Notes under the pieces: generated by a model | Seen by the model: only the letters and a program-made list of their open reading frames with translations | The model's database searches: none | Told to the model about the DNA's origin: nothing | Program-made: the position numbers and the translations under genes | In this document: piece by piece, positions 20,880 to 46,981 of the stretch | Layout: each line of letters opens with the position of its first letter | Numbering within the stretch: position 1 is the stretch's first letter | Assembly (NCBI GenBank): GCA_965645245.1 | Contig: OZ287073.1 | Coordinates: 372,001 to 436,000 of the forward strand | Direction: 5' to 3' | DNA length: 64,000 nucleotides | DNA from: Massalongia carnosa | Taxonomy: Eukaryota

Positions 20880-21651
20880 CTCACACCCTGAAGCTATAAA
20901 GCCTGCGTGGAAGCAGGCCTTGAAGGGGGAGCTACTGTCATGGTGTGAGCGCGAGATGCTCTGCTAAGCGATACCTCCCGACACGCTAAATGTTTTAGGT
21001 ATCGCGTTAGCCTTAGTGGGGAGCTAACCGCATTCAGGTAAGGAAATGGGTTCCGGGAGTTACATGGAAAATCTCTGCAGCAATTGATGCTTTCTTCCTT
21101 GTGTTCGTCTTGTCTATCTAGTATAGTCATAGCTAGCAATGCCACCACCTTCACCACCTGAATAGGTCCCCCCGTTGCCGCCTCGTCACACGATTCTTGA
21201 AAAGAAATCCTCAATTTTTCATGCAAAAAGGCAAGCCATTAGCAGCCGAAAGGAAAAACGCTCACAATGTTACGGAAATTCAAACTTATTTCTCTTCATT
21301 TCAATCGACTGTCGCCCTTTGTCATGGTGTGAACATGAGACGTGGAGGTTCATTGAACAGGTCAATCTACGGTTGCCCTAGATGGACTTTAAGGTTTAGC
21401 GCCGGCGGATGATCGTTGTGGTTAGACTGCGAGCTTACCGAGTTGGGTTTAGTGTCCCTTTTCAGGAGTTAAAGGAAATCTCTGCTAGCAGTTACTGTTT
21501 TCCTCCTTGTATTCGTTTCGTCAGATTATCATGTAGTATAGTCGATAGCGAAACACTGTTCCACCACATGGATAGGATCATTGGACTCCTACCGTGACAT
21601 TACGAACACCCTCCCATACTCCAGTGTGGTTCTTGTTCCCTATTAACATTC

Positions 21652-22881
21652 ATGTCCTCAGCTTCTCCAGCTCTCGACACTCCAGGATCTACCTCTCAGC
21701 CCCTTCGAGTCCCGATACTCGGAGGAGGCCTCGACCTCACAGCAATAGCAGCCTCTCAGGAAGGATGGGCCCAGTCGGCCTCGGCTTATCCGAGAGAGTG
21801 GTATCGTTACACGCATCGTCTCATCAGTTTCGCTTCCGGAGCCGTGGAAGCTATTGAGGAGAAGAATCGACAATACAATTTTCTCGAAACAGAAGTCAAC
21901 AACCTTCGTGCCCAGCTGCAGGCCTCCAATGACGAGCTCATAGCCGCTCGTGGGATGATATCTGTCTTTCGTCAGCAGAGTCAAGAATATCAGAATCATA
22001 CTAGCAACAGAGAACCCCGTTCTGAAAAGCTTCCCGACATTCCGAAATTCTCGGGAAACAAGGACGAGCTTCGATCATGGACGACTCAACTGCATCTCAA
22101 ACTCTTTGTCAATGCCGATCGGTTCATGGGTCCCAAGTCCGGCCTCATCTACGCTATTAGTCGACTCGAGGGACTCGCCATTTCACAAGTACAACCATAC
22201 GTCAGATCGGAACAAGAAATTCTTCTGGATGATGTGGCTTCCTTGTTAACAATGTTGGAGAGAGCTTTTGGGGATCCCGACAAGAAGGCCACTGCACAAC
22301 GAGAGCTTCGGTCCCTTCGACAGAAGAATCGGGAGTTTCACGTGTACTTGTCGGACTTTCAGCGACTGATCCCGGACACTAACTTCGATTCTGAGGCTCA
22401 GCGCTCGGCTCTGTTGAATGGTGTCAGCGACGAACTAAAGCAGCTAATGGTAACCCAGGAGTTACCCAGCGATTTGGACGGGTTAATTACCTTGTTGCAG
22501 AGACTCGACACCCGACAACGCAACGTCAATGCTTCGCTTCGTAAACCTTTCTCGTCTCGTTCCTCTTCGCCTGCCACTGTTGGAGCCTTGCCCCGTAATC
22601 CGCAGTCCGGAGGAGTGGCCCTGCCCCGCGCCGCGTCCCCCGTCCCCTTGTCTTCATCCTCCGCACCCGAACCCATGGATCTCTCGACTACTAGTCGTGG
22701 TAAGTTGCCCTCAGCGGAGGTCACTCGCCGGATGACGGAAGGTCTGTGTCGGTATTGTGGGGAGTCGGGACATTTTGCGTTAAATTGTCCCAGGTTAACA
22801 AAGGGCCCGAGTAGGCCCAAGAATTCACGTCTCAACGAGACCTCTTTTGCTTCTCCGGAAAATGCGGAGTCTTCGGGATAA
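21652..22881 (+). CDS. gag: Gypsy B gag
   Basis: Homologous to gag A; CRYCGESGHFALNC knuckle. Confidence 0.92.
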   Translation: MSSASPALDTPGSTSQPLRVPILGGGLDLTAIAASQEGWAQSASAYPREWYRYTHRLISFASGAVEAIEEKNRQYNFLETEVNNLRAQLQASNDELIAARGMISVFRQQSQEYQNHTSNREPRSEKLPDIPKFSGNKDELRSWTTQLHLKLFVNADRFMGPKSGLIYAISRLEGLAISQVQPYVRSEQEILLDDVASLLTMLERAFGDPDKKATAQRELRSLRQKNREFHVYLSDFQRLIPDTNFDSEAQRSALLNGVSDELKQLMVTQELPSDLDGLITLLQRLDTRQRNVNASLRKPFSSRSSSPATVGALPRNPQSGGVALPRAASPVPLSSSSAPEPMDLSTTSRGKLPSAEVTRRMTEGLCRYCGESGHFALNCPRLTKGPSRPKNSRLNETSFASPENAESSG

Positions 22882-25800
22882 GTCGCCCTCGAAGACTCTT
22901 GGAAGGTTCCCCGGTTTCAATTTCAGCTTTCTCTCTGTCAGAAGACTCCTTAGATGGTAGACACCTTGTCATATCTATAGTACTCTCTGTGGGGAATCGC
23001 TCCTTCCGCACCCATGCCCTGATTGATTGTGGTGCCTCGGGTTATGCGTTTATTGATGCATCCTTCGCGCAAAGAAACTCCCTGTCCCTCACCCCTTTAG
23101 CTTGCCCTCGTGTTCTTCAGGTAGTGGATGGCCGCCCTATTGCCACTGGCATGCTCACTCATCTTGTCAAACTTCAACTCAGTATCGATGCCCATAGCGA
23201 ACCTGGTTCATTTCTTGTTACTCAATTGGGTCATTACCCCGTTGTTTTGGGAGTCAAATGGCTTCAGATTCATGATCCCTTCGTCAGCTGGTCCCGAAAC
23301 ACCTTGACCTTTTCGTCTCGTTATTGTGCAGCGGAGTGCCTACAAGGAAAGCGCTCCCCTCTTGTTGTTCCTGGAATTCCAGATCCCTCGGAAGAGTTTC
23401 TAGTGAAAGAAACTGCTTCTTCTTCGAATAATATTGCCTCGAAATCTAGTGATCCTTCGGAAGAGTCTTTATCAAGAAAGACTGCTTCTTCTCTGAACCA
23501 TACTGTTCCTGAATCTGATAGCCAATTTGACGGCCGTCAAACCCCTCGTGAGGACAAGGTCCCTCTCGAGGTTATCGAACCCTTCGAGCTTGCCCGAGTT
23601 GACATGCCTGTTCAGGATGTCAAACGGGAAGCAGTCGATTCCTTTGAACCTAAGAATCCCGCTGTTCGTGCTAGTCTTGAACCCTTGAAGCCCATGCACT
23701 CTGTACTGTCCCTTGTTCAGCCTCCAGATCTGAGTATCACATGATCGGAGCCGCCCCCTTTTCAATCTTGATGAAGAAGCGAGAAAACGAGATCTTCACA
23801 GCCTCCTTGTACGACATTGACGAAGTCATTCGGACCCGTCAAAGTGTCTTCTTGTCCGCCGCGTCCATGAAAGATGTCGAGAAGACATTGAAACCTAAGA
23901 TTCATATCGATCCTGCCCCTATCGTTCCTAAAGAATTTCATGACTTACTGGATGTCTTCTCCAAGACAGAGGCAGACAAACTACCTCCACATCGCCCTTA
24001 CGACCATAAGATTGTGTTAACTGAAGGGGCCGTTCCGCCCTCAGGTCCCTTGTACAAGATGTCAGCACCAGAATTACTAGTTTTGCAGAGATATCTCAAG
24101 GAAAACCTCGCTAAAGGATTTATTCGTGCTAGTTCGTCTCCAGCCTCCTCGCCGGTGTTGTTTGCTCGTAAACCTTCAGGAGGGCTTCGTCTCTGTGTTG
24201 ATTATCGAGCCCTGAATGCGATCACTGTTAAAAATCGCTATCCCTTGCCCCTGATTCAGGAAACTCTAGACCGACTGGCGAAGGCCGTCATCTTTTCCAA
24301 ATTCGACATTGTAGCGGCCTTTAACAAGCTTCGCATGCAAAAAGGACAAGAATGGATGACGGCATTCAAAACTCGATATGGATTGTACGAGTACGAAGTA
24401 ATGCCTTTTGGACTTTGCGGGGGCCCAGGCTCCTTTCAGCATTATATCAACGATGTTCTTCGGGAATTTCTGGACGTCTTCTGCACCGCGTACATCGATG
24501 ATATTCTGATATACAGCCGATCAGTGAAGAAACATAAGGTTCATGTCAGGAAAGTCTTGGAGGCCCTTCGAGCAGCAGGACTACAACTGGATATTGAGAA
24601 ATGCGAGTTCTTCGTCATCGAGACCACGTACCTAGGCCTAATCATTTCGGATAAAGGTATTCGAATGGACCCTCAGAAAGTCGCAGCAATTAAGGAATGG
24701 TTTTCACCAAAGAACGTTCGAGATATACAAGCTTTTGTGGGTTTTGTGAACTTCTACCGCCGTTTTGTTCGAGGGTTTTCCGAAATAGCCTCGCCCCTGA
24801 TCAAGTTAACCAAAAAGAATACAGTCTTTGCCTGGGATGAAAAATGCGAGAAGGCCTTTCAAGCCTTGAAGGACGCCTTTCTTAGCGATACAGTATTAAT
24901 GCATTTCGATCCTGAAAAGAAAATAGTAGTGGAAGTCGACGCTTCGGACTGGGTAGTAGGAGGAGTACTCTCGCAATATGACGACGAGGGAGCGCTTAGG
25001 CCGGTGGCCTTCTTCTCTAAAAAACACTCACCAGCGGAGATTAACTACGAAATCTATGACAAGGAACTCATGGCCATTGTTCGTGCTTTTGAAGAATGGA
25101 GAGCCGAGCTTGAAGGGGCTGCTTTTCCCATACAAGTAATTTCTGATCATAAGAACTTAGAGTAATTCATGACAACCAAGCAGCTGAGTCGTTGCCAGGC
25201 CCGTTGGTCGGGATATCTTTCTCGTTTCGACTTCAAGATATTGTATCGTCCAGGCAAAATCGGAGGAAAACCTGATGCATTGACCAGAAGGTCTCAAGAC
25301 CTACCTGAAGGGGAGGATGATCCACGATTGAAAGTTCAGCATCAAGTGGTCTTGAAACCTCGAAATTTAGAACTTCTGAGCAATGATTTAAACATTCCTA
25401 GTCAAGCGGATGATCGTCAAACCGAGCGAGAAGAAGTCGAAAAGACTCTGGAAGAACTCTGGAAAGAGGGTCTGGAGAATGATCCTTTTCCGAGCAAGAT
25501 TCTCGAACTCCTGCGAAATAAGGTCAGTCATTCTAAGGAAATCTCTTTGGCAGAATGCAAAGAAATTCAGGGACGACTACACTATCGAGAAAAGATGTAT
25601 GTTCCAGACTCGCATGCACTGAGAATGAGACTTTGCAGAGAAATGCACGACAGTCCCGTAGCCGGACATCCAGGAAGAGCAAAAACCTTCGATCTAGTTC
25701 AGCGATATTACTATTGGCCTCAGTTCTATCAGTTCATAGCGAAGTATGTGAAACATTGTCAGGTGTGCTCTCGAAGCAAGTCTTCTCGTCAAGGAAAGAT

Positions 25801-26902
25801 GGGAGTGCTTCGACCATTACCCGTACCTGAGCAACGCTGGCAGGACATCTCCATGGAATTTGTTACTGGTCTCCCTGTTAGTCAAGGATTCGACGCTGTA
25901 CTAGTTGTTGTGGATCATCTGTCAAAGCGACGTCACTTCCTGCCTTGTCATACTACTCTAGACGTTGAGGGCCTCGCGAGGCTGTTTCTAAAGGAGATTT
26001 GGAGGCTACATGGATTGCCTCCGACCATTGTATCCGATCGTGGAGTGCTTTTCGTCGCAGAATTTTGGAAAATCTTATGTCAACGTCTGGGAATAAAGAG
26101 TCTCTTGTCCACTGCATTTCACCCCGAAACCGACGGGCAGACTGAAAGAGTAAATTCTTCAATGGAGCAGTACATCCGTATGTATACCGACTACTTGCAG
26201 GACGACTGGGTAGACTGGTTACCGCTGGCAGAATTCACGGGAAACAACATGACCTCGGAAACCACTGGATGTAGCCCCTTCTTCGCGGAGACGGGATTTC
26301 ATCCTCGAATGGGATTTGAATCAATAGAACCTTCCCGGTCGCCCGCCAGTCTGAATGCAAAAGGTTTCGACAACAAGATGCAGCAAATCAATGACGTACT
26401 GCAGGAAGAGATGAAGTTTGCTCAGGCAAGGTACGAGTTCGATGCTAATAGACACAGAGTCCCTGCCCCGGTTTATCAAGTAGGAGATAGGATATGGCTA
26501 AATGCTAAGAACATACGCACTCAGAGACCTGCCCGAAAGTTCGATTGGAAGAATCTGGGTCCATTCGTCATCTCCAAGGTCGTCAGCAAATACGCATACC
26601 AGCTGGCCCTGCCACCAGGCATGAAGATCCATCCAGTGTTCCATGTTTCGCTCTTGACTCCTGTGCCACAAGATCCTCACCCTGGTCATATCGCTCCCCC
26701 TCTACCACCCGTGCTAGTTGATGAAACTGAAGAATACGAAGTCGAAGAGATTTTAGACTCGAAGAAGATACGCAATCGTCTGAAGTATCTGGTCCAGTGG
26801 ATAGGCTGGAACGACCCTACCTGGGAGTACGCGGAGTACGTCACCAACGCTCTCGAACGAGTACAGGAATTCCATAAACGCTACCCTGACAAGCCTCGCT
26901 GA
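22860..26902 (+). pseudogene. pol: Gypsy B pol with a frameshift (~23740) and a stop (25166-25168)
   Basis: Same domains as pol A. A 1-nt loss in the SIYM motif and TAA in place of Tyr in NLEYFM. Confidence 0.92.
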
Positions 26903-29900
26903 TTCACACCGACTAGGCACTATAGCCTGCGTGGTCTCAGGCCTCGAAGGGGGGAGCTACTGTCATGGTGTGAACATGAGACGTGGAGGTTCATTGAACA
27001 GGTCAATCTACGGTTGCCCTAGATGGACTTTAAGGTTTAGCGCCGGCGGATGATCGTTGTGGTTAGACTGCGAGCTTACCGAGTTGGGTTTAGTGTCCCT
27101 TTTCAAGAGTTAAAGAAAATCTCTGCTAGCAGTTACTGTTTTCCTCCTTGTGTTTGTTTCGTCAGATTATCATGTAGTATAGTCGATAGCGATACACTGT
27201 TCCACCACATGGATAGGATCATTGGACTCCTACCGTGACACCCTTCTTGGTATAACTCCAGATGATATATGGAATATGGATGAGACAGGCTTTCGAGTTG
27301 GCTGTGGGGTAACCCATTTGGTGGTGACACTATCATCACATAAACGAATTATGATCGCTGATCCAGACAATCGAGACTATATAACTTCGGTCGAATGCAT
27401 CAATGGAGTTGGCGGAAGCGTTCCATCCTTTTTGATTTTGAAAGGGTTCAACATACTTCACAAATGGGCCTTAGAGAATGATTTGAAAGATGATATCGTG
27501 TTGACTACAAGCGATAGCGGCGATTCGAATGATTGTCTAGCATTATAGTGGTTAAAGCATTCTAATGCTCATTCAAAAAAGGTTCAAAAAGGAGCGTTTA
27601 GGCTTCTTTTGTTGGATGGATATGGATCTCATCTAACGTATGAATTTTGGGAATATTCGAAAGAAAATTAGATCTGTTTATTCAGATTACCCCCCTATTC
27701 AACTCATTTGACGCAGCCATTGGACGTTGGTGTTTTTCAGCCAATGAAACATTATCATGCTGAAGCGGTTGACAACGCCATTCGGTTGGGTGACGTTGAC
27801 TTCAATCGTCTGGATTTTCTGGCCGCATTCAATCAATTTCGTACAAAGGCATTCAAATCATCTACTATCAAATCAGCCTGGGAAAAAACTGGGTTGATAC
27901 CTTACAATCCGGAGGTAGTCTTGACCAAAATTCGTGCTTTAAATCCGGCATTACCACCACTACCAATATCATCTTCGGAGACAATAATCCTACCTCATAC
28001 CCCCAAAAAGCCCAAAGCCGTTGCTAAAGAAGGGAAAAACATTATTCAGCGAATGAATAATAATGAAGAAATTACTCCAGAAAGAATGGGACGTTTTATC
28101 AAAGGGTCGGTTGCAAACGCTAATTTACTAGAATTGACGCAACGCGACTTGCAAGCCATACACACAGCTGCATTAGCTAAAAGGGCCCGAAAAATGCTTG
28201 CTGGCACCGTTGTTCAGAAGGGAGGAATCGTTACCGTTCGAGATGTGAGGCAAAATCACCTACATCGTACCCAAGAAGAGGTGGAAAGGGAGGAGGGTCG
28301 TCAAAAGCGTGCTGAGACGGCTAGACAAAAGAAAATATTTCTCTATGGAAAAGCGATAGCTAAACGGTTTGGCTTGGTGGGTAAAAAGGCCGAAAGCTGG
28401 ATAGATGAACGTCAGCCTTTGATTTTGAATAGCTTCTGTTGGAACTGTGACTGCAACAGGCGGAATGGTAGCACTGGGTAATTGATATGACTAGTTCGAC
28501 AAACGAGTTCTTGCACATGCAAAACAAATTGGGAGAAACGATTGACTTTCTACCACTACGTAGGGTAAAACTGCTCCTATTTATGCCCTTCCACCAGCGA
28601 TTCCAGAAGCTTCCATTTCCATCTCATCGGTTCCCGCTTCCGATGCGATTTCTGACTTCATACAAATTTGCCACCGCCACAAGCCTTTCCTTGCCGAGGT
28701 AGATGCAAATTGCTTTGTCAGCTGGTTTCGGTACTTGGCATCGGTTGCCGTTTTAACAGCTTCATTTTGAAAGGGTCAATCAATGGATATAATGTAAATA
28801 GTTTGAGAAATGCGTCATGGAGATGATAGCGTCATGGAGGTGAGCCGCACCTAGAGCGTAGCTCCGGGTGCGGTCCATCGGATTTTCCTCGGTCGCACGG
28901 TTAACTGAACTCCTCAGAATAAAACAATATTGCGAGAGCGCTCGATCCTGGCTGGGAACTTGTCGACATCAGGTTTTCACGTTGGCACGTGACTGCGATA
29001 TGCTGCAGGATTGGCTATGGAACGAAACCGAAAAGGGGGAGACGTTTTTCCAGACCCCTTCCGATCAAGGTACTCCTCAGTCTCAGCAAATCCAATCGCT
29101 CCGCTTCGATCAGTACTCCAACCTCATCTACAACCGCAAAACCAATTGAGTGGAGCGATAGAATCAAGATAGACCGCGTGATAGCCGATATCTGAATGAC
29201 AATCTGATCAACTTCTATCTCTTCTACATGCGGAACGATTACAAACGACAGAGTTTTGAGTATGTTTGCAAAATTTACTTCTTCGATCGAATTCAAAGCC
29301 AGCAGCAGATCAACAACTCTTTGAGAAAGGACATTGCCTATATCCTTGGCTGCAGCTATGCTATAGTGCCTGTCAATGAGAATTTCCATTGGTACGTGCT
29401 TGTTGTAAGAAATGCTACCTCAGAGGCGAAGCATTCAGATCATCAAAATTAAAACCTGTCTCATTCGTGTATCATGGCCTTTGATTCGCTCGGAATCTCT
29501 CGAACATTGAAAGTCTCGGGCAGTATAGTTATCCCAGTTAGAGTTCTTCAAAAAATTAGCAACGTAGATGATATTGCCTATTCGTGTCTGGACGGATTGA
29601 ATCTCCCTTTGCAAGCAAACAGGCACGATGTGGAATATATCTCCTGAGATACATGGAGAGTTCTCTGCAAGATTTAGCAGCACTGCTTGCCGCTTGCGAG
29701 GGATCACGGGAAACCTTTTTTGATACCTTTAACCCTTTGTATTTTCGTCTAGAGATCGAGAAGATCTTAATGAGTTTGCTGAATTGAAAGGTTCGCTTGT
29801 CTATAATGAATGATACGATGTGTTTCTCTTTTCTTTTCTCTCTCTTTATACACAGAATTCTAGGTCTAAGAAAGACAACAGTTAAACGTAATACTCTTCT

Positions 29901-30870
29901 TGCTAGTGTTTGATAGACCGGATTTTGGCGTCCTTCCTAATCTAGGAAAGCGCCTCAGTATAGCTTCTCGCCGGTTTCCCAAGTATCATTAGCTTCCGTC
30001 TGCCTCGCTCTTCTTTCAATTTTCTTTCCACACCATATACACTTTCCTGCGCCAGACACCTCTTTCCCGATTGACCTCATTCTCTTAGTTGCTAGCTCCT
30101 TGTACTTATCTTCATGACTCCATGCTCGGATCTTGAACCGTGACTTAAGTCGGACAGCAAGCCGACAACTGCGACGATCGCTTTAGCTTCTGTGCTGCCA
30201 ATCCAGTCAAGGGCTTCTCGAGATGTATATGAACACATGTGCTTTGGGTTCAACCATCGCTGTGACACTAGATGTTGAAAGATCTCTCGAAGCTCACCTT
30301 TCCTGATTCTTTTCAAACCTGACCTCATTCATTTCTTCTCGGCGTCTGTATTTTGCTTCCGCGACCTGTTGCGCTTTGGATGTGTTTGTATGACAATTCC
30401 CATGTGCAAAGTGTGAGTTATCGGCGCAGCCATGAGAAAGCCAGCGAAATATAGTACTGATCGAAGCTGCCGTACTTTGGGCATGACCAAGAAAAAAAGG
30501 TCTTGCATTGTGAAGGGAGACTAGTTGATTATGTCGTCAACGCAGGCCTCATAGCTGAATTATCAAGCGATCTGCTAACACCTCCTGTATCGGCTCGATC
30601 TGGAATGATTGAAGCTCGTGCGGGTTTCAGACTTCGATTCGGTCTGACATGACGACGACTGCAGAATTCGGACTTGCCTGGATCGGGAAGTCCGCTCGAG
30701 GAGGCATGCATCGTTCACATGATTGATAGATCATACATTAGATCCTTTTAAGCCATCTGCGAAATCTGGTTCGCCTTGCGTTTTTTCAATAAAAATTGTG
30801 GATGCTCGTCAGATGGGGAACTTTGTGTCAACTTCAGAAGGTTAGCATTTTCATACAATTTGAGAGTCTG

Positions 30871-33666
30871 CTAGCTTATCTCTTCCGAGTTATCAATTGT
30901 TTCTACCTCATTCTGCTTAAAAATCGCAGCATTGTTCATCGCAAGAAGGGTGGTTGAATGTTCGCTTCCCAACGTCTTTTGACTTGCTTTCAGCGTCTCT
31001 TCTATCAACTTTATTACTTCTTGTTTGCGTCCTAAACCGCTATAACTAACTGCAAGATTGTTCATCGTTATGAGAGTGTCCGGATGTTCGCTTCCCTGCG
31101 TCCTCTGACGTGCCTTCAACACCGTTTCGTTCAATCCATTGCCTCCCGTTTGCGTCCTAAATCGCTATAACTATATGCAAGACTGTTCATCGTCCTGAGA
31201 GTGTCCGGATGTTCGCTTCCCAGCGTCCTCTAACGTGCTCTCAACACCGTTTCGTTCAATTCCATTGCCTCCCGTTTGCGTCCTAAATCGCTATAACTAG
31301 CTGCAAGATTGTTCATCGTTATGAGAGTGTCCGGATGTTTGCTTCCCAGCGTCCTCTGACGTGCCTTCAACACCCTTTCTCCCAATTCCATTGCCTCCTG
31401 TTTGCGTCCTAAATCGCTATAACTAGCTGCAAGATTGTTCATCGTTATGAGAGTGTCCGGATGTTTGCTTCCCAGCGTCCTCTGACGTGCCTTCAACACC
31501 TTTTCTCCCAATTTCATTGCCTCCTGTTTGCGTCCTAAATCGCTATAACTAGCTGCAAGATTGTTCATCGTCACGAGAGTGTCCGGATGTTCGCTTCTCA
31601 GCGTCCTCTGACATGCCTTCAACGCTGTTTCTCTCAATTTCATTGCCTCCTGTTCGCGTCCTAAATCGCTATAACTACTTGCAAGATTGTTCATCGTCCT
31701 GAGAGTGTCCGGATGTTTGCTTCCCAGCGTCCTCTGAAGTGCCTTCAACGCTGTTTGTCTCAATTTCATTGCCTTCTGTTTTCCTCCTAAATCGCTATAA
31801 TCAGTTGCAAGATTGTTCATCGTTATCAGAGTGTCCGGATGTTCGCTTCCCAGCGTCCTCTGACGTGCCTTCAACACCTTTTCTCCCAATTTCATTGCCT
31901 CCTGTTTGCGTCCTAAATCGCTATAACTAGCTGCAAGATTGTTCATCGTTATGAGAGTGTCCGGATGTTCGCTTCCCAGCGTCCTCTGACGTGCCTTCAA
32001 CACCGTTTCGTTCAATTCCATTGCCTCCTGTTTGCGTCCTAAATCGCTATAACTATTTGCAAGATTGTTCATCGTATCAAGAGTGTCCGGATGTTCGCTT
32101 CCCTGCGTCCTCTGACGTGCCTTCAACACCGTTTCGTTCAATTCCATTGCCTCCCGTTTGCGTCCTAAATCGCTATAACTATTTGCAAGACTGTTCATCG
32201 TCCTGAGAGTGTCTGGATGTTCGCTTTCTAGCGTCCTCTGACGTGCCTTCAACACCGTTTCGTTCAATTCCATTGCCTCCCGTTTGCGTCCTAAATCGCT
32301 ATCACTATCTGCAAGACTGTTCATCGTCCTGAGAGTGTCCGGATGTTCGCTTCCCAGCGTCCTCTGACGTGCCTTCAACACCGTTTCGTTCAATTCCATT
32401 GCCTCCCGTTTGCGTCCTAAATCGCTATAACTATATGCAAGACTGTTCATCGTATCAAGAGTGTCCGGATGTTCGCTTCCCAGCGTCCTCTGACGTGCCT
32501 TCAACACCGTTTCGTTCAATTCCATTGCCTCCTGTTTGCGTCCTAAATCGCTATAACTATATGCAAGACTGTTCATCGTCCTGAGAGTGTCTGGGTGTTC
32601 GCTTCCCAGCGTCCTCTGACGTGCCTTCAACACCGTTTCGTTCAATTCCATTGCCTCCCGTTTGCGTCCTAAACCGCTATAACTATTTGCAAGACTGTTC
32701 ATCGTCCTGAGAGTGTCCGGATGTTCGCTTCCCAGCGTCCTCTGACATGCCTTCAACATCATTTCTCCCAATTCCATTGCCTCGTGTAGCCGGCCATTCT
32801 CATGAAACGCAATTGCAAACCTCTCCGCCACACTAACACGATTGAGCTCTGAGTATTCGTCAAGAAACGGCTTATCTCTGCAAAGACTTATGCAAGACTC
32901 GATATGAGGCAAGAATTCCGAATGCTCTCTCGCACAGACTTCACACTCCGTCACGGATCCTGTTACTTCTTCCTTATGAGAATCGTCGATGAAACTTGGA
33001 GAAAGGTTCTCATCGTTCTCAATGTCTTTGGGGATGTGTTGAAAATGAGAATCATTTGAAACAAGCGAGTCGTCGGAAATAGCTTCGATAGTAGGCGCAA
33101 TCTGGAACAGTAGCGTTAAGCAACGCTCCACATCCTCCACGAAAGCCTGTCTGGGAGCTACAACTGTTTCATCTCCATCCGAATGAGTGTCAGGAATTGT
33201 GCTACCGTTGTCGCTTCCGACCTCCATTAGGAACTGTTGGACGTCATTTAACGTCGATCGCATAGTCAGAATCAGTTTTTCGTCGACCTCAAAGTTTTGT
33301 GTATCAAGCAGCGAGTCTATATGCGGGTCAGAAGAACTGGCAGTGTTTTCAAAGGAAGCTCTGTCACTTCCCAACAGCTTGAAACATACCGACAATGAGC
33401 GCAGCCCCAAGCGAGTTGAGCACTTCGAGTACGCTTATCTGAAGGCTTGAAGAATGTGCCAGACATGCCTCAAGCTGTCCACCGCATAAATCCTCGCCCC
33501 AAAGGATTAACTGCCCCAAATTATGCCTGGTTGCTCCTTGCTGTTCTTGTAGCCAGCTGGAATCCGCTTTCATCTGCCGGAAATGGATTCGCAAAAGCCC
33601 CACACATTGCTGGTACAAGGCAGTGGCTAAACCATGCGCTGGCCCTCCTTCAGGAGTCCTCGCCAT
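30871..33666 (-). CDS. TPR-array protein without nucleotide-binding domain; helical (possibly HeLo-like) N-terminus; premature stop after repeat 12
   Basis: ATG 33666; intron 33389-33317 (GTATGT..CTGAC..TAG) joins the two ORFs in frame. About 14-15 repeats of 42 aa (LGSEHPDTLxTMNxLAxSYSDLGR). TAG at 31230-31232 and a 1-nt deletion near 31135. Confidence 0.85.
30950..32760 (-). repeat. 126-bp coding tandem repeat (TPR), high internal identity
   Basis: GAGAGTGTCCGGATGTTCGCTTCCCAGCGTCCTCTGACGTGCCTTCAACACC recurs at 126-bp period. Confidence 0.95.
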
Positions 33667-34198
33667 CTCCAACCACTCGCGCTACAGCCGTTGTCGCGTG
33701 AACGCCTTACCAATCTTCGAGAGTCGATACAAATCTCGTGGTCTGTCGCTAGCCAAGAGACCCACCGTCTAACCGTTCCGTGAATACGACGTTTTCGGCT
33801 GATCTCACAAACGTCAGATCACGAAGGATCGGACTTGAAAGCTTCTTTCTGGTGCGATGAGGTTGTCTGCCGCCGGAAACCACCGAGGCGTCTTCTTCTA
33901 GCACTACTATCTATCATCAAGAGCGAGCTAGAGCCAGACAACGAGTCACGCACCAACATCAGACCTTTCTTGTATGCGCAGGAACAACTCGCGAAGGAAG
34001 TAATGATGTTCATCTATGCAGGCGCCCCACCATCTTCGAATTTCCATGCTTGTCGGCTTACTTAAGCACGGCGGAGGATCAGTGCGGGGTGTCGGTCCAA
34101 GTTGGCCCAAGTCGGCTCTATCCAGAGCGTAAACTTTTGAAGCTTGCTTCTACACCTTCATTTGGGTCGTGTTCTTGGTTGATTCCGAGCGAGCGAGT

Positions 34199-35914
34199 AT
34201 GGAATCTCTCTCTTTTACATTAGCTGTGATCCCTCTTCTGGTCAGCACAGCAGAACATTACAAGACAGCGTATAATGCATTCCACCGGCTACGAAAGGCC
34301 TCCCGCGAGGCCGAAATCCTGCGTGTCGACCTGGTCGTCCAAAGAGCTCTATTCGATGACAACTGTAGAAACTTGCTGAACAAGTGTGGCGTTGATGAGG
34401 CTATGGCTGCTCTCATGCTCAAAAGCCCAAGACACACTGGCTGGTCCATGAACGAGCTTCAAGCAAAGATCAAGAAGGTCCTTGGATCCTTTTCTGAGGC
34501 GTTTGTCGGCATCATGCAACGAATCGAGGCCGAGCTGAAGGGCATCGAGGATAAAGTACAGAGCTGTCTCTCCGTAGACAGAGGTGTCGGCTGGAGAGTG
34601 CGTCTGGCAGTGACAAAACCTACGTTGGACAATTCTATTGAGCAGATCAATCGACTGAACATCAACCTGAACGACATTCGTATGCGAGTTGATGATGCCA
34701 GTCGGCGGAAAAAAGGCAAAGGTCTCCAACCTGCTCGTATACAACAAGATTCTCGAAACGGACCAGAAATTCGACGACTATTTCAAGAATTTGCTGTAGT
34801 ACAACAAGTCTCGCAGAAGTTGTACCAAGCCCTGGCCGGGGCGTGCAATGATCACGATCGACATGATACACTTATCAATCTCACCCCTCGAATCAACGCT
34901 ATCTCGAAATGCGTTCAGCTCGAACTTGCCTTGCGTAATCCCCGGCAACATTCTTGGACTCCGATGAAACAGCATGCAATCTGGTTATCCGTTGAGTCTC
35001 TCAAGATCATGAATTCTGGACAGACCGAGTCATTACTGAAACAGCTAGAATTTGTCTCGGTAGACGACCAACCTTCATCGTCGACTCAAAATGTTGTGAC
35101 AATACATCCTGCGGCTCCTTCAGAACAAGAACCTCCACGTAGCTCAGTTCAGAATCGTCGAAAGACCTTTTGTCGGAGGGTACATGAAGGTTCCGCGAGC
35201 TGCCTGTCACGCTCCTGTATCGGCTCTTTTCAACATAATCGAGGAGCGGAACTTGAGGTGTTTTTGGTCCCCAAACTATCAATAGAGGTGTCGCGTCTTG
35301 ACGTATCCACATTGAACGATCTCTTCTCACAGAAGCCAAGCAGCAATCAGAGGACATTGAATCTGTTCGAGTGTGTACGGCTTGGTCGCAAATTGGCAAC
35401 AGCTATGCTTAATTTTCACTCGACGTCATGGTTGTCCCCGTTGTGGAGTAGCCAGCAAATACGGCTCCTTCATTCAGAGGTGTCCGCCGGTGGCAACGTG
35501 TTCGAAGAGCAGGAGCCATACCTGGACGTCGCAATAACAGCCTCTGGACCTGGAGCAAGCAGTCGATCTCTAGAAGCTGATGATCCAAGAGTGATTGAAA
35601 ATTCCTTCCTGTACAGACTGGGAGTCATACTCCTGGAACTTGCATACGAGCAGCCTTTGCGCGATATGCGTATAAACGAGGACGGGAATGACGGAGCAGC
35701 TGTCGCAGAGTTTTACACAGCGACAAGAACCCGGAACAATGTTGCTGGGATTTTAGGACACTCGTACGCAAAGATAGTGGGTCAGTGCTTGAAGTGCAAC
35801 TTTCGAAGTGGTGTATCGGATCTGCACGAGTCAGATCTGCAGGAGGATGTATACCGAGACATAATCTGCAAACTAGGTTCTCTTGAACAGAAACTTCAAG
35901 ATGTATGGACATAA
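34199..35914 (+). CDS. Intronless protein: HeLo-like helical N-terminus plus degenerate kinase-like C-terminal domain
   Basis: N-terminal hydrophobic helix MESLSFTLAVIPLLVSTAEHY; C-terminus RLGRKLATAMLNFHSTSWL..WSSQQI..LYRLGVILLEL..YAKIVGQCL. No HRD or DFG motif. Confidence 0.7.
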   Translation: MESLSFTLAVIPLLVSTAEHYKTAYNAFHRLRKASREAEILRVDLVVQRALFDDNCRNLLNKCGVDEAMAALMLKSPRHTGWSMNELQAKIKKVLGSFSEAFVGIMQRIEAELKGIEDKVQSCLSVDRGVGWRVRLAVTKPTLDNSIEQINRLNINLNDIRMRVDDASRRKKGKGLQPARIQQDSRNGPEIRRLFQEFAVVQQVSQKLYQALAGACNDHDRHDTLINLTPRINAISKCVQLELALRNPRQHSWTPMKQHAIWLSVESLKIMNSGQTESLLKQLEFVSVDDQPSSSTQNVVTIHPAAPSEQEPPRSSVQNRRKTFCRRVHEGSASCLSRSCIGSFQHNRGAELEVFLVPKLSIEVSRLDVSTLNDLFSQKPSSNQRTLNLFECVRLGRKLATAMLNFHSTSWLSPLWSSQQIRLLHSEVSAGGNVFEEQEPYLDVAITASGPGASSRSLEADDPRVIENSFLYRLGVILLELAYEQPLRDMRINEDGNDGAAVAEFYTATRTRNNVAGILGHSYAKIVGQCLKCNFRSGVSDLHESDLQEDVYRDIICKLGSLEQKLQDVWT

Positions 35915-36105
35915 AGTCCGGATTAATTCAAAACTGCGTGTCGAAAGTCCTCCCTTGGGTCACAACGTCTCGATCATTCGTGTCAATCATGTTACCCGGT
36001 TTGCCTCATGTAACGCAGTTCATTAAAAGTTGACTCATCATCCTTGATAAGTTCATACAGAAGGCGCGCGTACGCCGCGCAACAGGTTGGATTGATCCCG
36101 ACAGG

Positions 36106-36150
36106 TGTCACGGTGGGAGTCCAATGGTCCTATCCATGTGGTGAACATTA
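36106..36150 (-). repeat. LTR end related to gypsy B, next to a lone MITE TIR at 36071
   Basis: TGTCACGGTGGGAGTCCAATGGTCCTATCCATGTGGTGAACA is a near reverse complement of the B LTR 3' end. Confidence 0.75.
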
Positions 36151-36234: not shown

Positions 36235-38592
36235 CGGTATTAATTGACATATAAGACCCTGGTTTTATAGGGGGGTGGTCCGTCAAAGGGTCAATTAGAA
36301 CAGGGTTTTATAGGTAGGCACGTAGGGGGGTTTAATAAGTGGGTGAGGTTTTATAGGGGCTAGATATTAGTCAGCTGGAGAGACAACGCGAAAACGCATA
36401 CTAATTTAATATTTCTCCCCGATTTTTCGGCCTTTGGCATGCTCTTTCCATTCATTATTCATCTAAATTCATCCTATCATCAACCAATTATATGATTATG
36501 GCTTCTTCTCATGTTCAAAATCCTGCTCAGCCTTCGATTCAGCCTCGTCCTGGGCCAACTTCGAAGCCGTCTTGTATTCGTAGCTTGAATCAAGCCCGAC
36601 TTTCTAAAAACGCCTTTATTCAACCCCCTATGCCTAGTATGCCTGTAGCCTCGAATGGTAATGAGGCTCAAATCGTCGAACAATTTCGGCTTTATCGAAT
36701 GAAGGCAGATCGCGATGCATTAGGCGATAATTCTGATGAACACGATGCTCCTCGTCATCAATTATCCTACACCAGAGAGCATAAATTAGCTGCTATCAGT
36801 TATGCTCAGACTACATGGAAGACTCAAAAGGACGGAGGTTTGAAACTTATCAGCAAATACGCCGCCGCCAAAGATCTCGGAATCACCACCGCGATGCTGA
36901 GACAATGGATCAAGAACAAATTAGACATCGAGGGTCAATCTCGGGGCAAACGTAAAGACAGGAAGGCTATCGGTCTTTGTCAGGAACCTGAGTTGGAAGA
37001 ACGTTTGTTGGTGTTGTTTACAAAAGCTCGAGATGCAGGTCGTAAAATTAATAAACGATGGTTTGTCCGTCAAGGTCGTCAGTTGTATGGTGACTTATAT
37101 CCTCATCGAGTGATCAAGAACACTGGAAAGATGACTGAATATGTCGGGTTTAAATTCTCCAATGGTTGGTTTAGTGGGTTCAGACGACGATGTGGAGTGG
37201 CTGTCAGAACTCCTATATACCAAAAAAGCTCAGCAGGTAGGGCTGATAATAACGATGTCGTCAAGATGATCTAACCGCTTTCGATGCCAGGTCCCCGAGA
37301 ATTTTCGTCGTGTAATCGAGCTCTGGTTGCAGTTTAATCGTCGCAATTCTCAGCCATTATCGAATCAAATTCCTTTGCATGGAGGAGGAAGATGTCGTCT
37401 TTGCGATATTGGTAATATGGATCAAACTCCCATTGCTTAACGAGTTTCTTCAGGGTCAGTGTTATGACTTCAAGGGAGCTAAAACCATATGGATAAAGAC
37501 TCATCGCTCTGGATGGGACAAAAGGCGAGCCACATTGATGGTTTATGTTTCTGCTGATGGTGTGAATCGCTGCAAACCTCTTCTTATATTTCAGGGTCAA
37601 GATGTCGTCAAGAGCAGTCGCATCAAAAAAGAAATGCAGCAGTATGATTCAGGGGTGGTGGTTCAATGGAACGCAAAGGCTTACTGCAATACAAAAGTCA
37701 TGATTCGATGGCTAAAACAGCAGTATAAATTCGCAACTACAGGATTTTCAAACATTAATACTGGACGATTTTTATCCTTAGATGTATTTGCGGGACAAAA
37801 AACCGACGAGGTTTGTAATTGAATTCAATGCTACTTCAGATTACTAACAAATTGACAGGTTAAACAAGTCTTTCGAGATTTGAATGTCACGGCATCGTTT
37901 ATTCCATCCGGCTGTACCGGATTTGTGCAGGTTCTCGACGTAGCCATCAACAAACCTCTGAAAAATCGAATTTCCGAGCTGGCCGACATTCATTATGATG
38001 AGAATTTCGAGAAGTGGAACAAAGGCTCATACACGGTTGGTGAACGACGGATTATGCTAGCACACTGGGTGGGTCAGGCATGGAGGGATATTCATCGCGA
38101 GAATGCCTCTCTGATTCGTCAGACCTTTCGAAAGCTTGGATTATCTTTAGCTATAGATGGTTCGGAAGATAACGAGCTCTCAATCAAAGACATTCCAGAC
38201 GTAAAAGTCGGAAAATGGAGGCTTTCGGCCGGTCAGGAGGATATACAAGAGGGTGGAAGAGCCCGACACGGTCGATAATATTCAGAAGGCTGGTGATGAG
38301 GTGCAGATAGAAGATGGGAATGAGTTTGTTATTGATTGTTTCAGACGATGAAACAAATGATCATGATGATAGCGAGATGGACGTAGAGGAAGATTGATTT
38401 CAGAGAATTTTTGGGAGAACTCTGTTAGTTTCACATACAAAATTGCCCTATAGATTACAAATCATTCCAAATTGTCCCAAATATGGTTTTATAGGTCAGA
38501 CCCCCTCGGTCAGAAAACAGTCATTTTGAACAGGGTTTTATAGGTAGGGGGGTTTTATATAAAAGTAGGGTCTTATATGTCAATTAATACGG
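36235..38592 (+). mobile_element. pogo/Tc2-like DNA transposon with intron-containing transposase
   Basis: 26-bp TIR C(G/C)GTATTAATTGACATATAAGACCCT; TA flanks at 36233-34 and 38593-94. Confidence 0.92.
36498..38397 (+). pseudogene. HTH/CENP-B plus DDE_1-type transposase, two introns, frameshifted
   Basis: EPELEERL..FKFSNGWF..GNMDQTP..LSLDVFAGQ..PSGCTGFVQVLDVAINKPLK. Introns 37237-37290 and 37811-37858. Frame lesions near 37214 and 37438. 3' end approximate. Confidence 0.82.
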
Positions 38593-42385: not shown

Positions 42386-45300
42386 CTAGGCGGAACGCGC
42401 TGAAGATTTTTTCTTCTTATTGTCATCATGGTCGGATTTCTTTTTATCTTTATCTCTTGCCGACTTGCTCGTTCGCTCTAGTAACATCGCAAGATCATGC
42501 TCCGAAGCGAGTCGATTAGGATGATCTTCCGTCAGTTTTTCATCAATTTTGACAACGTGCTCGAGCAGCTTTATAGCTTCGTCGATTTGCCCGTTGACTC
42601 CGTAAGCCCTGGCGAGCTCATGCATCGAATGGAGTCGATTAGGATGATCTTCCGTCAGTTTTTCATCAATTTTGACAACGTGCTCGAGCAGCTTTATAGC
42701 TTCGTCGATTTGCCCGTTGACTCCGTAAGCCCTGGCGAGCTCATGCATCGAATGGAGTCGATCAGGATGATCTTGCGCCAGTTTTTCTTTGACTTTGACA
42801 ACAAGCTCGAGCAGCTTTATAGCTTCGCCGATTTGCCCGTTGTCTCTGTAAGCACAGGCGAGTACATGCTGTGAATCGAGTCGATAAGGATTATCTTCCG
42901 CCAATTTTTCTCGTATTTTGACAACACGCTCGAGCAGCTTTATAGCTTCGTCGATTTGTCCGTTTTTTTTGTAAGCACTGGCGAGCTCATGCTGCGAAGC
43001 GAGTCGAGAAGGATGATCTTCCGTCAGTTTTTCATCAATTTTGACAACATGCTCGAGCAGCTTTATAGCTTCGTCGATTTGCCCGTTGACTCTGTAAGCA
43101 CTGGCGAGCTCATACATCGAAGCGAGTCGATGGGGATGATCTTCCGTCAGTTTTTCATCGATTTTGACAACATGCTCGAGCAGCTTTATAGCTTCGTCGA
43201 TTTGCCCGTTTTTTTTGTAAGCCCTGGCGAGGTCATGCTGCGAACCGAGTCGATCGGGATGATCTTTCGCCAGTTTTTCTCTGACTTTGACAACATGCTC
43301 GAGCATCTTTATAGCTTCGTCGATTTGCCCGTTTTTTTTGTAAGCCCTGGCGAGCTCATGCTGTGAATTGAGTCGATTAGGATGATCTTCCGTCAGTTTT
43401 TCTTCAATTTTGACAACATGCTCGAGCAGCTCCATAGCTTCGTCGCTTTGCCCGTTGTCTCTGTATCTGTAAGTCCTGGCGAGCTCATGCTGCGAAACGA
43501 GTCGATCAGGATGATCATTCGCCAGTTTTTCTCTGACTTTGACAACATGCTCGAGCAGCTTTATAGCTTCGTCGATTTGCCTGTTGTCTATGTAAGCACT
43601 GGCGAGCTCATGCTGCGAATCGAGTCGAGAAGGATGATCATTCGCCAGTTTTTCTCTGACTTTGACAACATGCTCAAGCAGCTTTATAGCTTCATCGATT
43701 TGCCTGTTGTCTCTATAAGCACTAGCGAGCTCAAGCTGCGAATCGAGTCGATCAGGATGATCTTCCGCCAGGGTCTTAGTTCGACTCTTATAAATTTCTT
43801 TAAAGACATCAATCGCTTCTACAAAATTTCCATGCCACCGAAACACTCGCGCAGTAAAGACTTTAATCTGAAATATTATTTCTTGATTTACTTCATTTCT
43901 ATTTCCTAGCCTCGAGCGAATGCGTTGAACGAGAGAACTTAACGAGTTATAATCGACCATATAATGGAGAACATACGCAAACTGAAAAAGAATTTGAGCA
44001 ATTTCCATATCAGATATGTTCTGTGTATAGTCCTCGATTTCGTTATCTACACAGGCACGCACATGAGATTGTAGGGAGATGAAAACAGGAAAATATTCAT
44101 ACTTACCCTTACATGATAATGCAAGGATCGTCGCGGCTGACTGCCATGCTATGCATCGAGTTTGATGATCTTGTCGCTCGTTCGCCCATGCATGTATCAG
44201 AGAATGCATAGAAATAATGATGAAACCGTTACTCTCATCCATAGTGATAATCGATAAAGACTCCAGAATTGCGCAAGCTTTGCGCCATCGCAAGCAGTCT
44301 TGAATAATAGACCGTCCTTGCTGAATATATTCTGGTAGTCTTGCGACGTGGCACTTGGATAAAAATAAGACCTCGTTATCATGATCTGTCTCATCATTCA
44401 TGATCTCTGAGGCATACTCGGAAGCCCTTTGAAATATTGTCTCCGATATTTCTCTATTATGCATAAAGGCAAGAGTATGAAGAAGATTCAAAGCATCCGA
44501 GTTCTTTGATACTTCAGAGTTCTGAATATACTTTAGAGAAACCTCGAATGTTGCATACACATTGCAATATGTCGACATGTTTTGCTTCGAATGAAATTTC
44601 AACAACTCTTTCATCTGCCGTTGAAAGATGATTGAATAATTTTCAAGTGAGCATCTATTTTTCTTCATATACACGCCTGCTTGAATTATTGCTAGCGTAT
44701 GTGATCCAAGACTTTCGACAACGATTGTAGCAGCTTTCTCTTTGTCTTTCCAACTACTCCCTGTGATATGAAGAGTCCGAAGTAGTAGCTCTCTCGCAAG
44801 CTCAATCTCGAGACAGTCTAACGTTTCACTTCCTACGGTCTCATATTCAACACATTCTTTAATACGTGTTGTGAGCAAGATATCGCCTCTTCTACCGGAG
44901 GGTATATATTTTGAATAATCAATCTCTTGATCATCGGCGTTATCAATTATTAGAAGCCACCGCTGACTATTGCAAGCTAGCCATGATTTGACATTTTCAA
45001 CGCTTGGCTTAGCCACACCACACTGTCGTCCGATGTCGATATATCCCTGATCAGCCGTGGCGATGCTTCCGGCGTCAAGCCAGAAAACTCCCCAATACCT
45101 AGCTTGTCAGCGAAATATTGACAGCAGGTTAAATTTTACATACTGATCTCGATGATCTTCTGCGAACTTCAGACAAACTTGGCTCTTGCCTGTACCTCCT
45201 ATTCCGATTATGACAAAAATCCTTTGATGTCTGGAAGGCATTACGGGATCAAGTAAGAACGCTTGAGCAAGGCGCTCACCAAGCTCCCGACGTCCAGTAT

Positions 45301-46780
45301 ACAGACGACTAGCACTACGGGGAACGATCCATGGATTGGGCATTATAGAATCTATTTACATATTATGAAGTTAGACGATCATGAATCTTGTAATATATCA
45401 AAGACCCGCACTGAAAGTGAACGAGAGGTTGAAGAGAATACTAACTAGTGAAATTAAGCCCCGTCGTTGCTTTAGCATTTTCGTTATCACTTATCTCAAG
45501 ACTTTTTCCGATCGACATATTTTCTCGACGTTTCGTGATTTTATCTACATTTAAGAATAAGAAGATTAGGTTTAACGTTGAAATTTATAAGTTATGAATT
45601 AACTGGCGGCGGAGCTGTAACTAAAATTCAAGTCTGACCTGATCGAGACTCATTTTCATGTGCTTGACAGGCCGACTTTTTCCAGCGTTGAAGCTCACCA
45701 AGAATGGCGTCATATCCTCGATCTTCTCGATTTGAGAACTTTGTCATGTCCTACGATGATTAACAGTAATACATTCAATGGCGTTACTGAAGTTACCATA
45801 TGATTTGCGTGAATGCCATAACAACTGTAACCCTTGATCTCTGCGGAATGCTGAGGCACAATCTAAATAACTCAGGGTCAGGATCTCCTGAAATGCGTTT
45901 GTTATCATACCTCTCCAACTCCAATCACACCGAGCTCTTCATAAAAGCATGTGATCGAGATTTCAGATCCTTCATCCTTTCTCAGCCTCAGAATATTATG
46001 AAAGCCTTTCTGCACCACCCGTAGCATTTCGGATCCTGGCTTCAGTATCTTTACGATGTCTTTATTTGCTCGCACAAGAATACCCGTCATCCGCGTCCCA
46101 AAGGTTGCCCACGATGCAAGATCGGCTCCATAATGCGGAACGCCGAGAAAAACCATTCCAGCCGCGCAACGCTCGATCTGATGAAGATATTCCTCGACGG
46201 CACTCCTCGACTGTCTGAGAGCGTCCTGAACAACAAGTCCACCGAGACTGTGAGCAACAAATAATATCTTTCTAGTTTCAGTGTTCGTCCGCTCTCGGTT
46301 TCGCACCAGCTCGCCGACCATATTCTCAGCATGATTACTCAGGCGACTGTTTGATGTGGGGTTCCAGAAGTTGGCGATATCTGCATCATAACCAAAGCTC
46401 AGGATGCGGACGTCTGGAAGGTCTTGCTTTAGAAGGTCGTTTGGCCAATGTACCCTTTTGTCTTTGTGAAGCCAGGTGGTGTACGAATTACCCGTCAATC
46501 CATGCACGAACACGATATCGACACGCGCCTCAGGGCCACCATCGTGTAACACTCTTACACCATAATTTTGGCCTTCTCCGATGGGCGCTGAAGGAACTGG
46601 TGTATTTGTCGCAGTCAATGTCTGACTGGTGATAGTTTGTGATGGATGATCGGTGAGTAGGTCTTGCGGCGCAACGTCTTCTGAAGAGTGCCCGCCGGAC
46701 GCTTCAGGAATTGGCGGGAACGCCGTCGGCAATGGTAACTGTGATCTGAACTTTTTAAAGCCCTTGAACTTGGAAGGCAT
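42386..46780 (-). CDS. Fungal NLR: SesB-like alpha/beta-hydrolase, NB-ARC, TPR; 6 exons, apparently intact
   Basis: DIVFVHGL, FVAHSLGG (nucleophile elbow), ANHMDMTKF; P-loop GIGGTGKS, Walker B LLIIDNAD, ILLTTR; 10 full and 1 partial ~40-aa TPRs. Five GT-AG introns splice in frame by hand. Confidence 0.93.
42490..43770 (-). repeat. 120-bp coding tandem repeat (TPR)
   Basis: GCTCGAGCAGCTTTATAGCTTCGTCGATTTGCC recurs at ~120-bp period; one unit has a 6-bp insertion. Confidence 0.95.
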
Positions 46781-46981
46781 CTTTGTTCAAGGTTTTGCGA
46801 TCTTGTAGTTGGAAGAGCGGGGGGAAACATGTGAAGAGGCTATAGCCTTGCAAGAAGACACAGTGCCTGTCTGATTGGCTGAGCTTATTGGCCAAGAAGA
46901 TAGAATTATGCGCCGCACTCCCCCCAATCATGAACGAGGGTGAACCTGTGTGGGTGAGCTGTAGTATGGTTCCCAATAAAC

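Follow-up and report, generated by a model that had tools for sequence, protein, structure and literature searches.

A divergent fungal gene pair with an MLKL-like member, and its partner gene in Massalongia carnosa as a probable chimera with an NLR repeat array

To our knowledge, MLKL-like proteins of fungi have been noted in reviews rather than studied. Among the described systems that come closest to the locus treated here, the consulted parts of one review mention that a HELL domain can occur in the same protein as a kinase or pseudokinase domain (PMC12881547). A second point of comparison is provided by SltB and PskA of Aspergillus nidulans, which are presented, in the consulted parts of the paper, as Pezizomycotina-specific pseudokinases; SltB, which also has a protease domain, has a zinc-finger factor of the C2H2 type as its target, and the gene pskA and the kinase gene ffkA are divergent neighbours (PMC4557415). 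We have analyzed a gene pair in a stretch of 64,000 nucleotides (nt) from Massalongia carnosa (assembly GCA_965645245.1, contig OZ287073.1, positions 372,001 to 436,000 of the forward strand), which is referred to below as the window. The pair consists of a left gene on the minus strand that encodes an array of tetratricopeptide repeats (TPRs) and a right gene on the plus strand that encodes a protein with an MLKL-like layout. An earlier note on this DNA had proposed that the two form a sensor/executioner module.

In our view, an MLKL-like gene and its partner form a conserved divergent unit here, and the partner of this particular strain has become a chimera with the TPR array of a NOD-like receptor (NLR; NOD, nucleotide-binding and oligomerization domain); we put the probability of this explanation at about 60%. 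The two-gene unit would be a property of ascomycete fungi, this locus being one instance of it. The product of the MLKL-like gene would combine a HeLo-like four-helix bundle with a C-terminal pseudokinase (DUF7580). The first exon of the partner gene would specify a helical domain of some 90 amino acids (aa), the N-domain, which in most relatives would be followed by an acidic linker, C2H2-like zinc fingers and variable tails. In the window the partner would break off after about 235 codons, inside the first finger, and go on in frame with the cap and TPR_10 repeats of an NLR of the NB-ARC type. The features concerned are the following.

33667-34198, no strand: divergent intergenic region, 532 nt from the coordinates, putatively a shared promoter
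33390-33666, minus strand: exon 1 of the left gene, encoding the conserved partner N-domain of about 90 aa (here 92 aa)
33317-33389, minus strand: predicted intron of the left gene, 73 nt, with GTATGT, a CTGAC branch site and AG; the frame is restored
32912-33316, minus strand: 5' part of exon 2, encoding the acidic linker with the motif L..L.P..E and, behind it, the beginning of the first zinc finger (TECEVC)
32908-32911, minus strand: fusion junction, a 4-nt overlap TGCC
31233-32911, minus strand: NLR-derived part in frame, with the cap helix region (LPHIESC...) and 12 TPR_10 units of 126 nt
31230-31232, minus strand: TAG in unit 13 that closes the open reading frame (ORF) prematurely, after 787 aa; the other 12 units have CAG
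30740-31229, minus strand: decayed 3' remainder, with the rest of unit 13, unit 14, the terminal unit and the C-terminal tail
34199-35914, plus strand: right gene, a single intact ORF of 571 aa, encoding a DUF7580 protein with MLKL-like layout
34199-34843, plus strand: residues 1-215 of the right protein, modelled as a long, HeLo-like bundle of four antiparallel helices, with a hydrophobic helix at the N-terminus
34808-35911, plus strand: residues 204-571 of the right protein, a kinase fold without catalytic motifs, the pseudokinase that corresponds to DUF7580

The divergent start codons, at 33666 on the minus strand and 34199 on the plus strand, lie as far apart as the earlier note had given (~530 bp), and the intron that it had placed in the left gene stands as predicted.

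The conserved nature of the unit follows from a metagenome scan with the alignment of DUF7580 proteins, which yielded 71 fungal loci with relatives at 22-40% identity (a metagenome scan with the close homologs of the right protein gave no relative). With the 92-aa product of exon 1 as tblastn query, homologs were found in 38 of the 71 loci, mostly at full length, with E-values from 6e-12 to 0.05 and identities of 22-39%. All 38 lie on the strand opposite to the DUF7580 match, and in 36 of them the homolog lies upstream, at a distance of 345-2131 nt from where the DUF7580 gene is estimated to start; in the other two loci (L070 and L071) the DUF7580 match is partial, and the distance is not meaningful there. 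Counted by distinct full-length groups, the homolog is present in 13 of 17, or in 13 of the 16 testable ones. The group L029 has no upstream DNA in the fetched locus, the group L010/L011 reached only E 9 in the tblastn search and has a clear homolog by motifs, and L004 and the L040 group showed no exon-1 homolog. The head-to-head linkage suspected earlier is thus conserved, with the qualification that the part kept is the small N-domain and not the TPR sensor.

The alignment of the N-domain (A5, 22 sequences) has the consensus G.A..LY..C...L...LGRL.LWGE.F..G.LD..L..S..LR..VL..L..IG, and exon 1 of the window aligns to it over residues 4-91. The position of the intron after the N-domain is common to the partners, and the ORFs of the relatives break at the same place. 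The acidic linker with its L..L.P..E motif is found in the window and in the partners of L001, L014, L037 and others; a direct tblastn comparison of the window linker with L001 gave a weak match (E 0.078). Further downstream, the motif RLGxANWxR is present in 15 of the 18 loci for which 700 nt or more of DNA are available downstream, most of which also carry the finger motifs FHDSGxG, FxCxxC...KNRxDWK and DLxPYxC. The left gene of the window has none of these four motifs and retains only TECEVC, with which the first finger begins. Beyond the fingers the tails differ, with GATA and Rua1_C in L037 and PHD in L049. The exceptions among the 18 loci are L014, the L016 group and L031. In L014 the N-domain and linker are followed by a TPR_10 array without a NOD, opposite a DUF7580 gene. 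In the L016 group (L016:5283-7453, minus strand) the N-domain is followed by transglutaminase-core/Rad4-type domains, a third type of tail. A further variation is seen in L012:4890-7637 (minus strand), where the N-domain lies some 590 residues inside a 916-aa ORF, behind a long N-terminal extension without Pfam match.

In searches outside these loci, exon 1 had no match at E<=0.1 among proteins of 162-2000 aa and no usable match in the ESM Atlas, and the N-domain profile matched sequences of the PDB only at E-values of at least 0.5. A weak Pfam match to HeLo occurs in 2 of the 22 family members (best E 4.8e-4) and was not used as support. BLASTP of the right against the left protein gave a best E of 3.9 and no common motif, and hhalign of A5 against the DUF7580 alignment (A1) a probability of 0.2. 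Complex prediction for the right protein with the exon 1 product, in which alignments were not used, scored 0.27 against a mark of 0.34.

The part of the left gene behind the linker has a different origin. Tandem Repeats Finder detected an array at 30958-32787 with a period of 126 nt, 14.5 copies and 91% matches, which was cut into 14 units beginning at 32780 and matched Pfam TPR_10 with an E-value of 3.6e-145. Variation between the repeats is concentrated at positions 5, 7, 8, 12, 25 and 32 of the 42. The earlier count of about 14 near-identical units is therefore correct for the DNA, whereas the product that can be read has 787 aa and 12 full units, ending at the TAG in unit 13. A motif search of these 787 aa found neither Walker A nor Walker B, as had been noted before, and Pfam found no NOD family in the 5' part; the 92 aa of exon 1 and the 134-aa linker matched no family at all at E<=10.

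A search with the non-repeat region of the left gene returned seven NOD-TPR proteins (P0007-P0013), the similarity of which (58-81% identity) is confined to the part that begins with LPHIESCISLCRDKPFL...; the best of these paralogs is 81% identical over the junction stretch. Ahead of the match point these proteins have 340-370 residues of a NOD module that includes DUF7779 (PF25000), and in which we presume to recognize Walker-B-like and TTR motifs. The match of P0013 to NB-ARC is weak (E 0.039, below the cutoff). The same boundary was found at the level of DNA. Contigs from four public runs were compared with the left-gene region; what is said of them refers to the 32 of more than 970 records, and the subset of differences, that were listed. 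Contigs of the paralog type, seen in all four runs, agree with the window as far as 32911, beyond which they have ..IDYRFRRSL, as in P0008 and P0011, which means that the homology to the NLR lineage begins exactly at 32911/32912.

From the other side, the junction is delimited by an allele of the locus that is 99% identical to the window and comes from a lichen metagenome run, in keeping with a lichen-associated ascomycete as the probable source of the DNA. The contig of this allele, X5, is 4712 nt long and has, within 3.1 kb, 31 differences from the window in addition to 3 gaps. It matches the window from 36000 down to 32908, thus covering the whole right gene and the 5' part of the left gene, and continues with 182 nt unlike the window. 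The 30 letters known of this continuation read in frame as ...EFLP IWFCYPCHV, which, by eye and from the letters only, resembles the DLQPYxC finger of the partner family. With the paralogs matching to 32911 and the X5 allele to 32908, 4 nt (TGCC) are common to both matches, as is typical of a deletion or of end joining. The junction sequences of X5 and of a further run, X1, did not recur in the window when as many as 3 mismatches were allowed, so that a local insertion displacing the rest of the partner gene is not seen. In addition, self-BLAST of the window showed that 32912-34198 is unique and has no second copy.

That the 5' part of the left gene is real coding sequence is indicated by the differences between strains, since 4 of the 6 listed in exon 1 are synonymous (the other two being L>I and M>I) and a 3-nt insertion behind 33279 in X1 and X5 keeps the frame. 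We read the TPR gene without nucleotide-binding domain, from its sequence, as a recent strain-specific fusion. The simplest route to it would start from a partner gene with an NLR in tandem downstream and consist in a deletion that joined the two. The earlier note had named, as a finding that would speak against its proposal, that close relatives reveal the gene as a recent deletion product of an ordinary NB-ARC gene, and what was found comes near to this: an array from an NB-ARC-type NLR lineage, joined at 32911/32912, and a 99%-identical allele without this junction.

The 3' end of the left gene is damaged. The earlier note had drawn the left gene as far as 30871, which does not hold, as the frame ends at the TAG 31232-31230. 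Furthermore, unit 14 is frameshifted by one base missing near 31135, a second TAG is present at 30873-30871 where relatives have Q, and near 30785 the tail is frameshifted once more, by 2 nt, paralog contigs having 2 extra bases behind this position. These lesions were read against the C-termini of P0007 and P0008 and the frame changes in tblastn. All four disabling lesions are situated in the last ~0.5 kb, with none in the 2.4 kb upstream, a pattern that points to selection having maintained the portion ahead of the first stop while the remainder decayed. The captured array would already have ended at the stop in unit 13, with a decayed tail. Both premature stops are CAG>TAG changes, that is CpA to TpA. 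This is the type of change made by repeat-induced point mutation.

The right protein belongs to a large family. Pfam DUF7580 (PF24476) matches residues 204-560 with 59.5 bits against a cutoff of 27, and the model matches all 47 aligned relatives. Six close homologs have lengths of 539-571 aa, and 1671 representatives were found at E<=1e-3. As the earlier note had it, the protein starts with a hydrophobic helix and has a kinase-like region without HRD and DFG; a motif search of the 571 aa found no GxGxxG or APE either. The family consensus has FHxTPW at the presumed HRD position, a placement made by eye. The AlphaFold2 (AF2) model of the whole protein, made with a 47-sequence alignment, has a mean confidence (pLDDT) of 78.5. 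Its long helices (2-215) are followed by a lobe rich in strands, then by an insert at 271-322 that is disordered, and finally by a helical lobe. Among the matches listed by Foldseek for this model, all are kinases or pseudokinases, MLKL included (best E 3.2e-3), and the alignment to MLKL 4btf spans 529 columns. VIA-align 2, an in-house structure aligner with which some 48,000 chains were searched and for which the significance bar for helical bundles lies at a Z of ~13, gave Z 9-11.4 for residues 204-571 to kinases and pseudokinases, namely 11.4 for BTK, 10.5 for PAN3 of Neurospora crassa, 9.5 for AtMLKL3 and 9.2 for MLKL. A comparison of the DUF7580 profile with sequences of the PDB gave only E-values of at least 0.43. 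On the basis of the model, the right protein is a pseudokinase with a kinase-like fold.

The 205 N-terminal residues were also modelled alone (pLDDT 86.6), again with an antiparallel four-helix bundle as the result. VIA-align 2 gave Z values for this bundle of 10.7 to the coiled-coil (CC) domain of Rx, 8.7 to the N-terminal domain of MLKL (6ux8), 8.6 to both 4btf and AtMLKL3 (6ka4), and 8.1 to MLA13. IncA reached 11.5 and 14.0 (6e6a_A), and IncA and designed bundles outscore MLKL. Foldseek with the bundle alone found no match at E<=1e-3, the HeLo of HET-s is not among the 50 matches listed in either VIA-align 2 run, and Pfam has no relevant family for residues 1-205 at E<=10. The nearest named clusters in the ESM Atlas are those of HeLo (PF14479; score 0.95, 180 of 256 features in common, 9 hits). 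As a fold, the four-helix bundle is established in the predicted model; its relation to HeLo, though unproven, is likely. MLKL and AtMLKL3 structurally match both halves of the right protein, and the MLKL layout of a four-helix bundle and a pseudokinase, which had been proposed by eye, is borne out by AF2, Foldseek, VIA-align 2, the ESM Atlas and the loss of motifs. Four residues, C216, H219, H222 and C325, are invariant in the 47 DUF7580 relatives and are sited where the bundle joins the N-lobe of the kinase fold (34844-35173). They may form a metal-binding site.

Taken together, the N-domain may couple the partner to the MLKL-like protein, of which the pseudokinase would take in the signal and the bundle would be the membrane-directed output. 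The chimera would be without the usual zinc-finger function, and we take it most probably for a null or neomorphic allele and not for an evolved sensor that is free of nucleoside triphosphatase (NTPase) activity. A number of observations weigh against this explanation, or against parts of it. The matches of the bundle are below the bar for helical bundles, the sole exception being IncA 6e6a_A, and the HeLo-type Pfam families (PF14479, PF17111 and PF17107) match none of the 47 DUF7580 members at E<=0.01. The continuation of X5 is known for 30 nt only, and its reading as a second zinc finger was made by eye. Moreover, no contig among the records listed bridges 32912-32982 in the samples of the window type: the contigs of X2 and X4, which are of this type, end at 32982, and run X1, which is ~0.7% divergent, leaves the window at 32977. 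This implies more structural variants than the model explains, and suggests from the contig sequences that the left gene exists in three or more structural forms. Finally, the frame of the chimera stays open across 12 repeats and L014 represents an independent partner composed of N-domain and TPR, so that a working TPR-tailed partner is possible.

The last point leads to the proposal that the TPR protein without nucleotide-binding domain is a working, NTPase-independent sensor, the hypervariable repeats of which detect a ligand and trigger the neighbouring MLKL-like executioner. Besides the frame that remains open across the junction and the likeness to L014, where a NOD is likewise lacking opposite a DUF7580 gene, this proposal can draw on the focusing of repeat variation on 6 of 42 positions, on the retention of the conserved N-domain, and on NOD-less repeat fusions that are noted for fungal gasdermin clusters in the consulted parts of a review (PMC12881547). 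It is nevertheless improbable in view of the 99%-identical allele without the junction, a junction that cuts the usual partner within its first zinc finger, the decayed 3' end of the left gene, the occurrence of TPR in only 1 of the 18 other partners and the lack of a motif common to both proteins. What is left of the sensor/executioner module of the earlier note is therefore a minority reading, based on L014 and the open 12-unit frame, to which the allele and the zinc fingers in 15 of the 18 loci are opposed. Alternatively, the pair could be regulatory and not a death module at all, with a pseudokinase scaffold controlling a zinc-finger partner of transcription type, in the way SltB acts on SltA in A. 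nidulans. The C2H2-like fingers and nuclear-type tails of the partners (GATA and Rua1_C, PHD) are in line with this idea, as are, in the consulted parts of PMC4557415, the action of SltB (pseudokinase and protease) on SltA and the divergent transcription of the stand-alone pseudokinase PskA from its neighbour gene. However, SltB and PskA are likened to the right protein by their description in print, and the N-terminal bundle has HeLo-type features and counts MLKL and plant CC domains among its structural matches. We regard this alternative as unlikely, though one to be taken seriously.

Two further explanations concern the junction itself. The ancestral left gene could have consisted of N-domain, NOD and TPR, and have lost the NOD by a simple intragenic deletion. 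The evidence at the breakpoint fits such a deletion equally well, and with a best paralog of only 81% identity at the junction stretch no near-identical donor was seen. The start of a finger (TECEVC) directly before the junction speaks against it, however, as does the X5 allele, which goes on with LPIWFCYPC, like the DLQPYxC finger and unlike the lead-in of a P-loop; a NOD was found in 0 of the 18 partners with downstream DNA. This makes the loss of an ancestral NOD quite improbable. The possibility that the junction is an artefact of the assembly, which could be brought forward because no bridging contig was seen among the records listed and the contigs of the window type end at 32982, is very improbable indeed: an overlap of 4 nt is too short for a misjoin, the join is in frame, and the breakpoints from two independent comparisons are within 4 nt of each other. 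The divergent unit with a chimeric partner thus remains our preferred explanation.

The term 'DUF7580' was found in no paper by full-text search, and a full-text search of the literature, supplements excluded, yielded reviews and surveys of NLRs and no description of the pairing of DUF7580 with a partner. The partner domain and the pairing are likewise not described in the consulted parts of PMC12881547, PMC9815663 and PMC10197012. The present analysis shows that fungal MLKL-like genes usually have a specific divergent partner gene, which offers a concrete two-protein system for experiment. The strain polymorphism at the locus constitutes a natural experiment, with an allele of the usual partner against the allele of the TPR-tailed chimera, and the locus shows directly how NLR repeat arrays can move onto other signalling domains. 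A bolder conception, which we hold to be a long shot, is that the N-domain is an adaptor that plugs exchangeable tails (zinc fingers, TPR, transglutaminase-like) into the MLKL-like executioner. The window would then display a newborn tail swap, in which a hypervariable NLR TPR array was grafted on the adaptor to give an NTPase-free sensor for a fungal necroptosis-like pathway.

The window as a whole is rich in transposons and in genes of the NLR type. The mobile elements include the following.

6252-10551: copia element
15565-26899: two Ty3-type elements
27672-28478 and 36492-37822: pogo/Tc5 remnants
47474-48607: Tc1/mariner element

The gene pair itself lies in an 8.9-kb segment flanked by a 40-nt inverted repeat (27203-27242 and 36104-36143, 95% complementary), the right arm of which is located just before the pogo/Tc5-type remnant at 36492-37822. 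A separate NLR-like gene is present at 42389-46786 on the minus strand, with a 906-aa ORF that contains a TPR_12/TPR_10 array; the first 480 residues align to P0008, with 31% identity over residues 9-673, and an ORF for a DUF676 serine esterase is found just upstream on the same strand. In addition, a run of ORFs on the minus strand (51361-56413), including a patatin-like phospholipase (52770-53591), may represent another effector-type or NLR-type gene.

Compared with the known systems, the right gene is close to MLKL of vertebrates and to the plant MLKLs (AtMLKL3), with which it shares the order of an N-terminal four-helix bundle and a kinase fold without catalytic residues, 4btf and 6ka4 being alignable to both halves. 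It differs from these in that sequence homology is not detectable, in that the helices of its bundle are much longer and a 50-residue disordered insert is present in the N-lobe, and in the invariant C216, H219, H222 and C325 of the DUF7580 family. Moreover, in comparison with MLKL, the neighbouring gene is not a kinase, so that an activator of the RIPK3 type is not evident. The architecture is also that of the fungal fusions of HeLo or HELL with a kinase or pseudokinase, for which, in the consulted parts of PMC12881547, no partner gene is described, and from which DUF7580 differs by the Pfam HeLo count of 0/47. The pair resembles the NWD2/HET-S pairs in the adjacency of the genes, a HeLo-like candidate executioner and a neighbour with a repeat array. 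However, the left gene has no NOD, no amyloid motif or sequence is common to both proteins, and the candidate effector carries a pseudokinase instead of a prion-forming tail.

The likeness to SltB and PskA is one of description: like the right protein they are pseudokinases, SltB with a zinc-finger target and PskA with a divergent neighbour gene. The protease domain of SltB and the kinase nature of the pskA neighbour are points of difference. When the left gene is held against the features of fungal NLRs of the STAND class (signal transduction ATPases with numerous domains), the C-terminal near-identical TPR_10 repeats are present and the central NOD is absent. Relative to the NOD-TPR proteins P0007-P0013 it is without the whole NOD and DUF7779 region (~340-370 residues) and has a foreign 5' part instead, whereas its cap helix, its TPR_10 units and its C-terminal tail are homologous to theirs, down to the same tail sequence.

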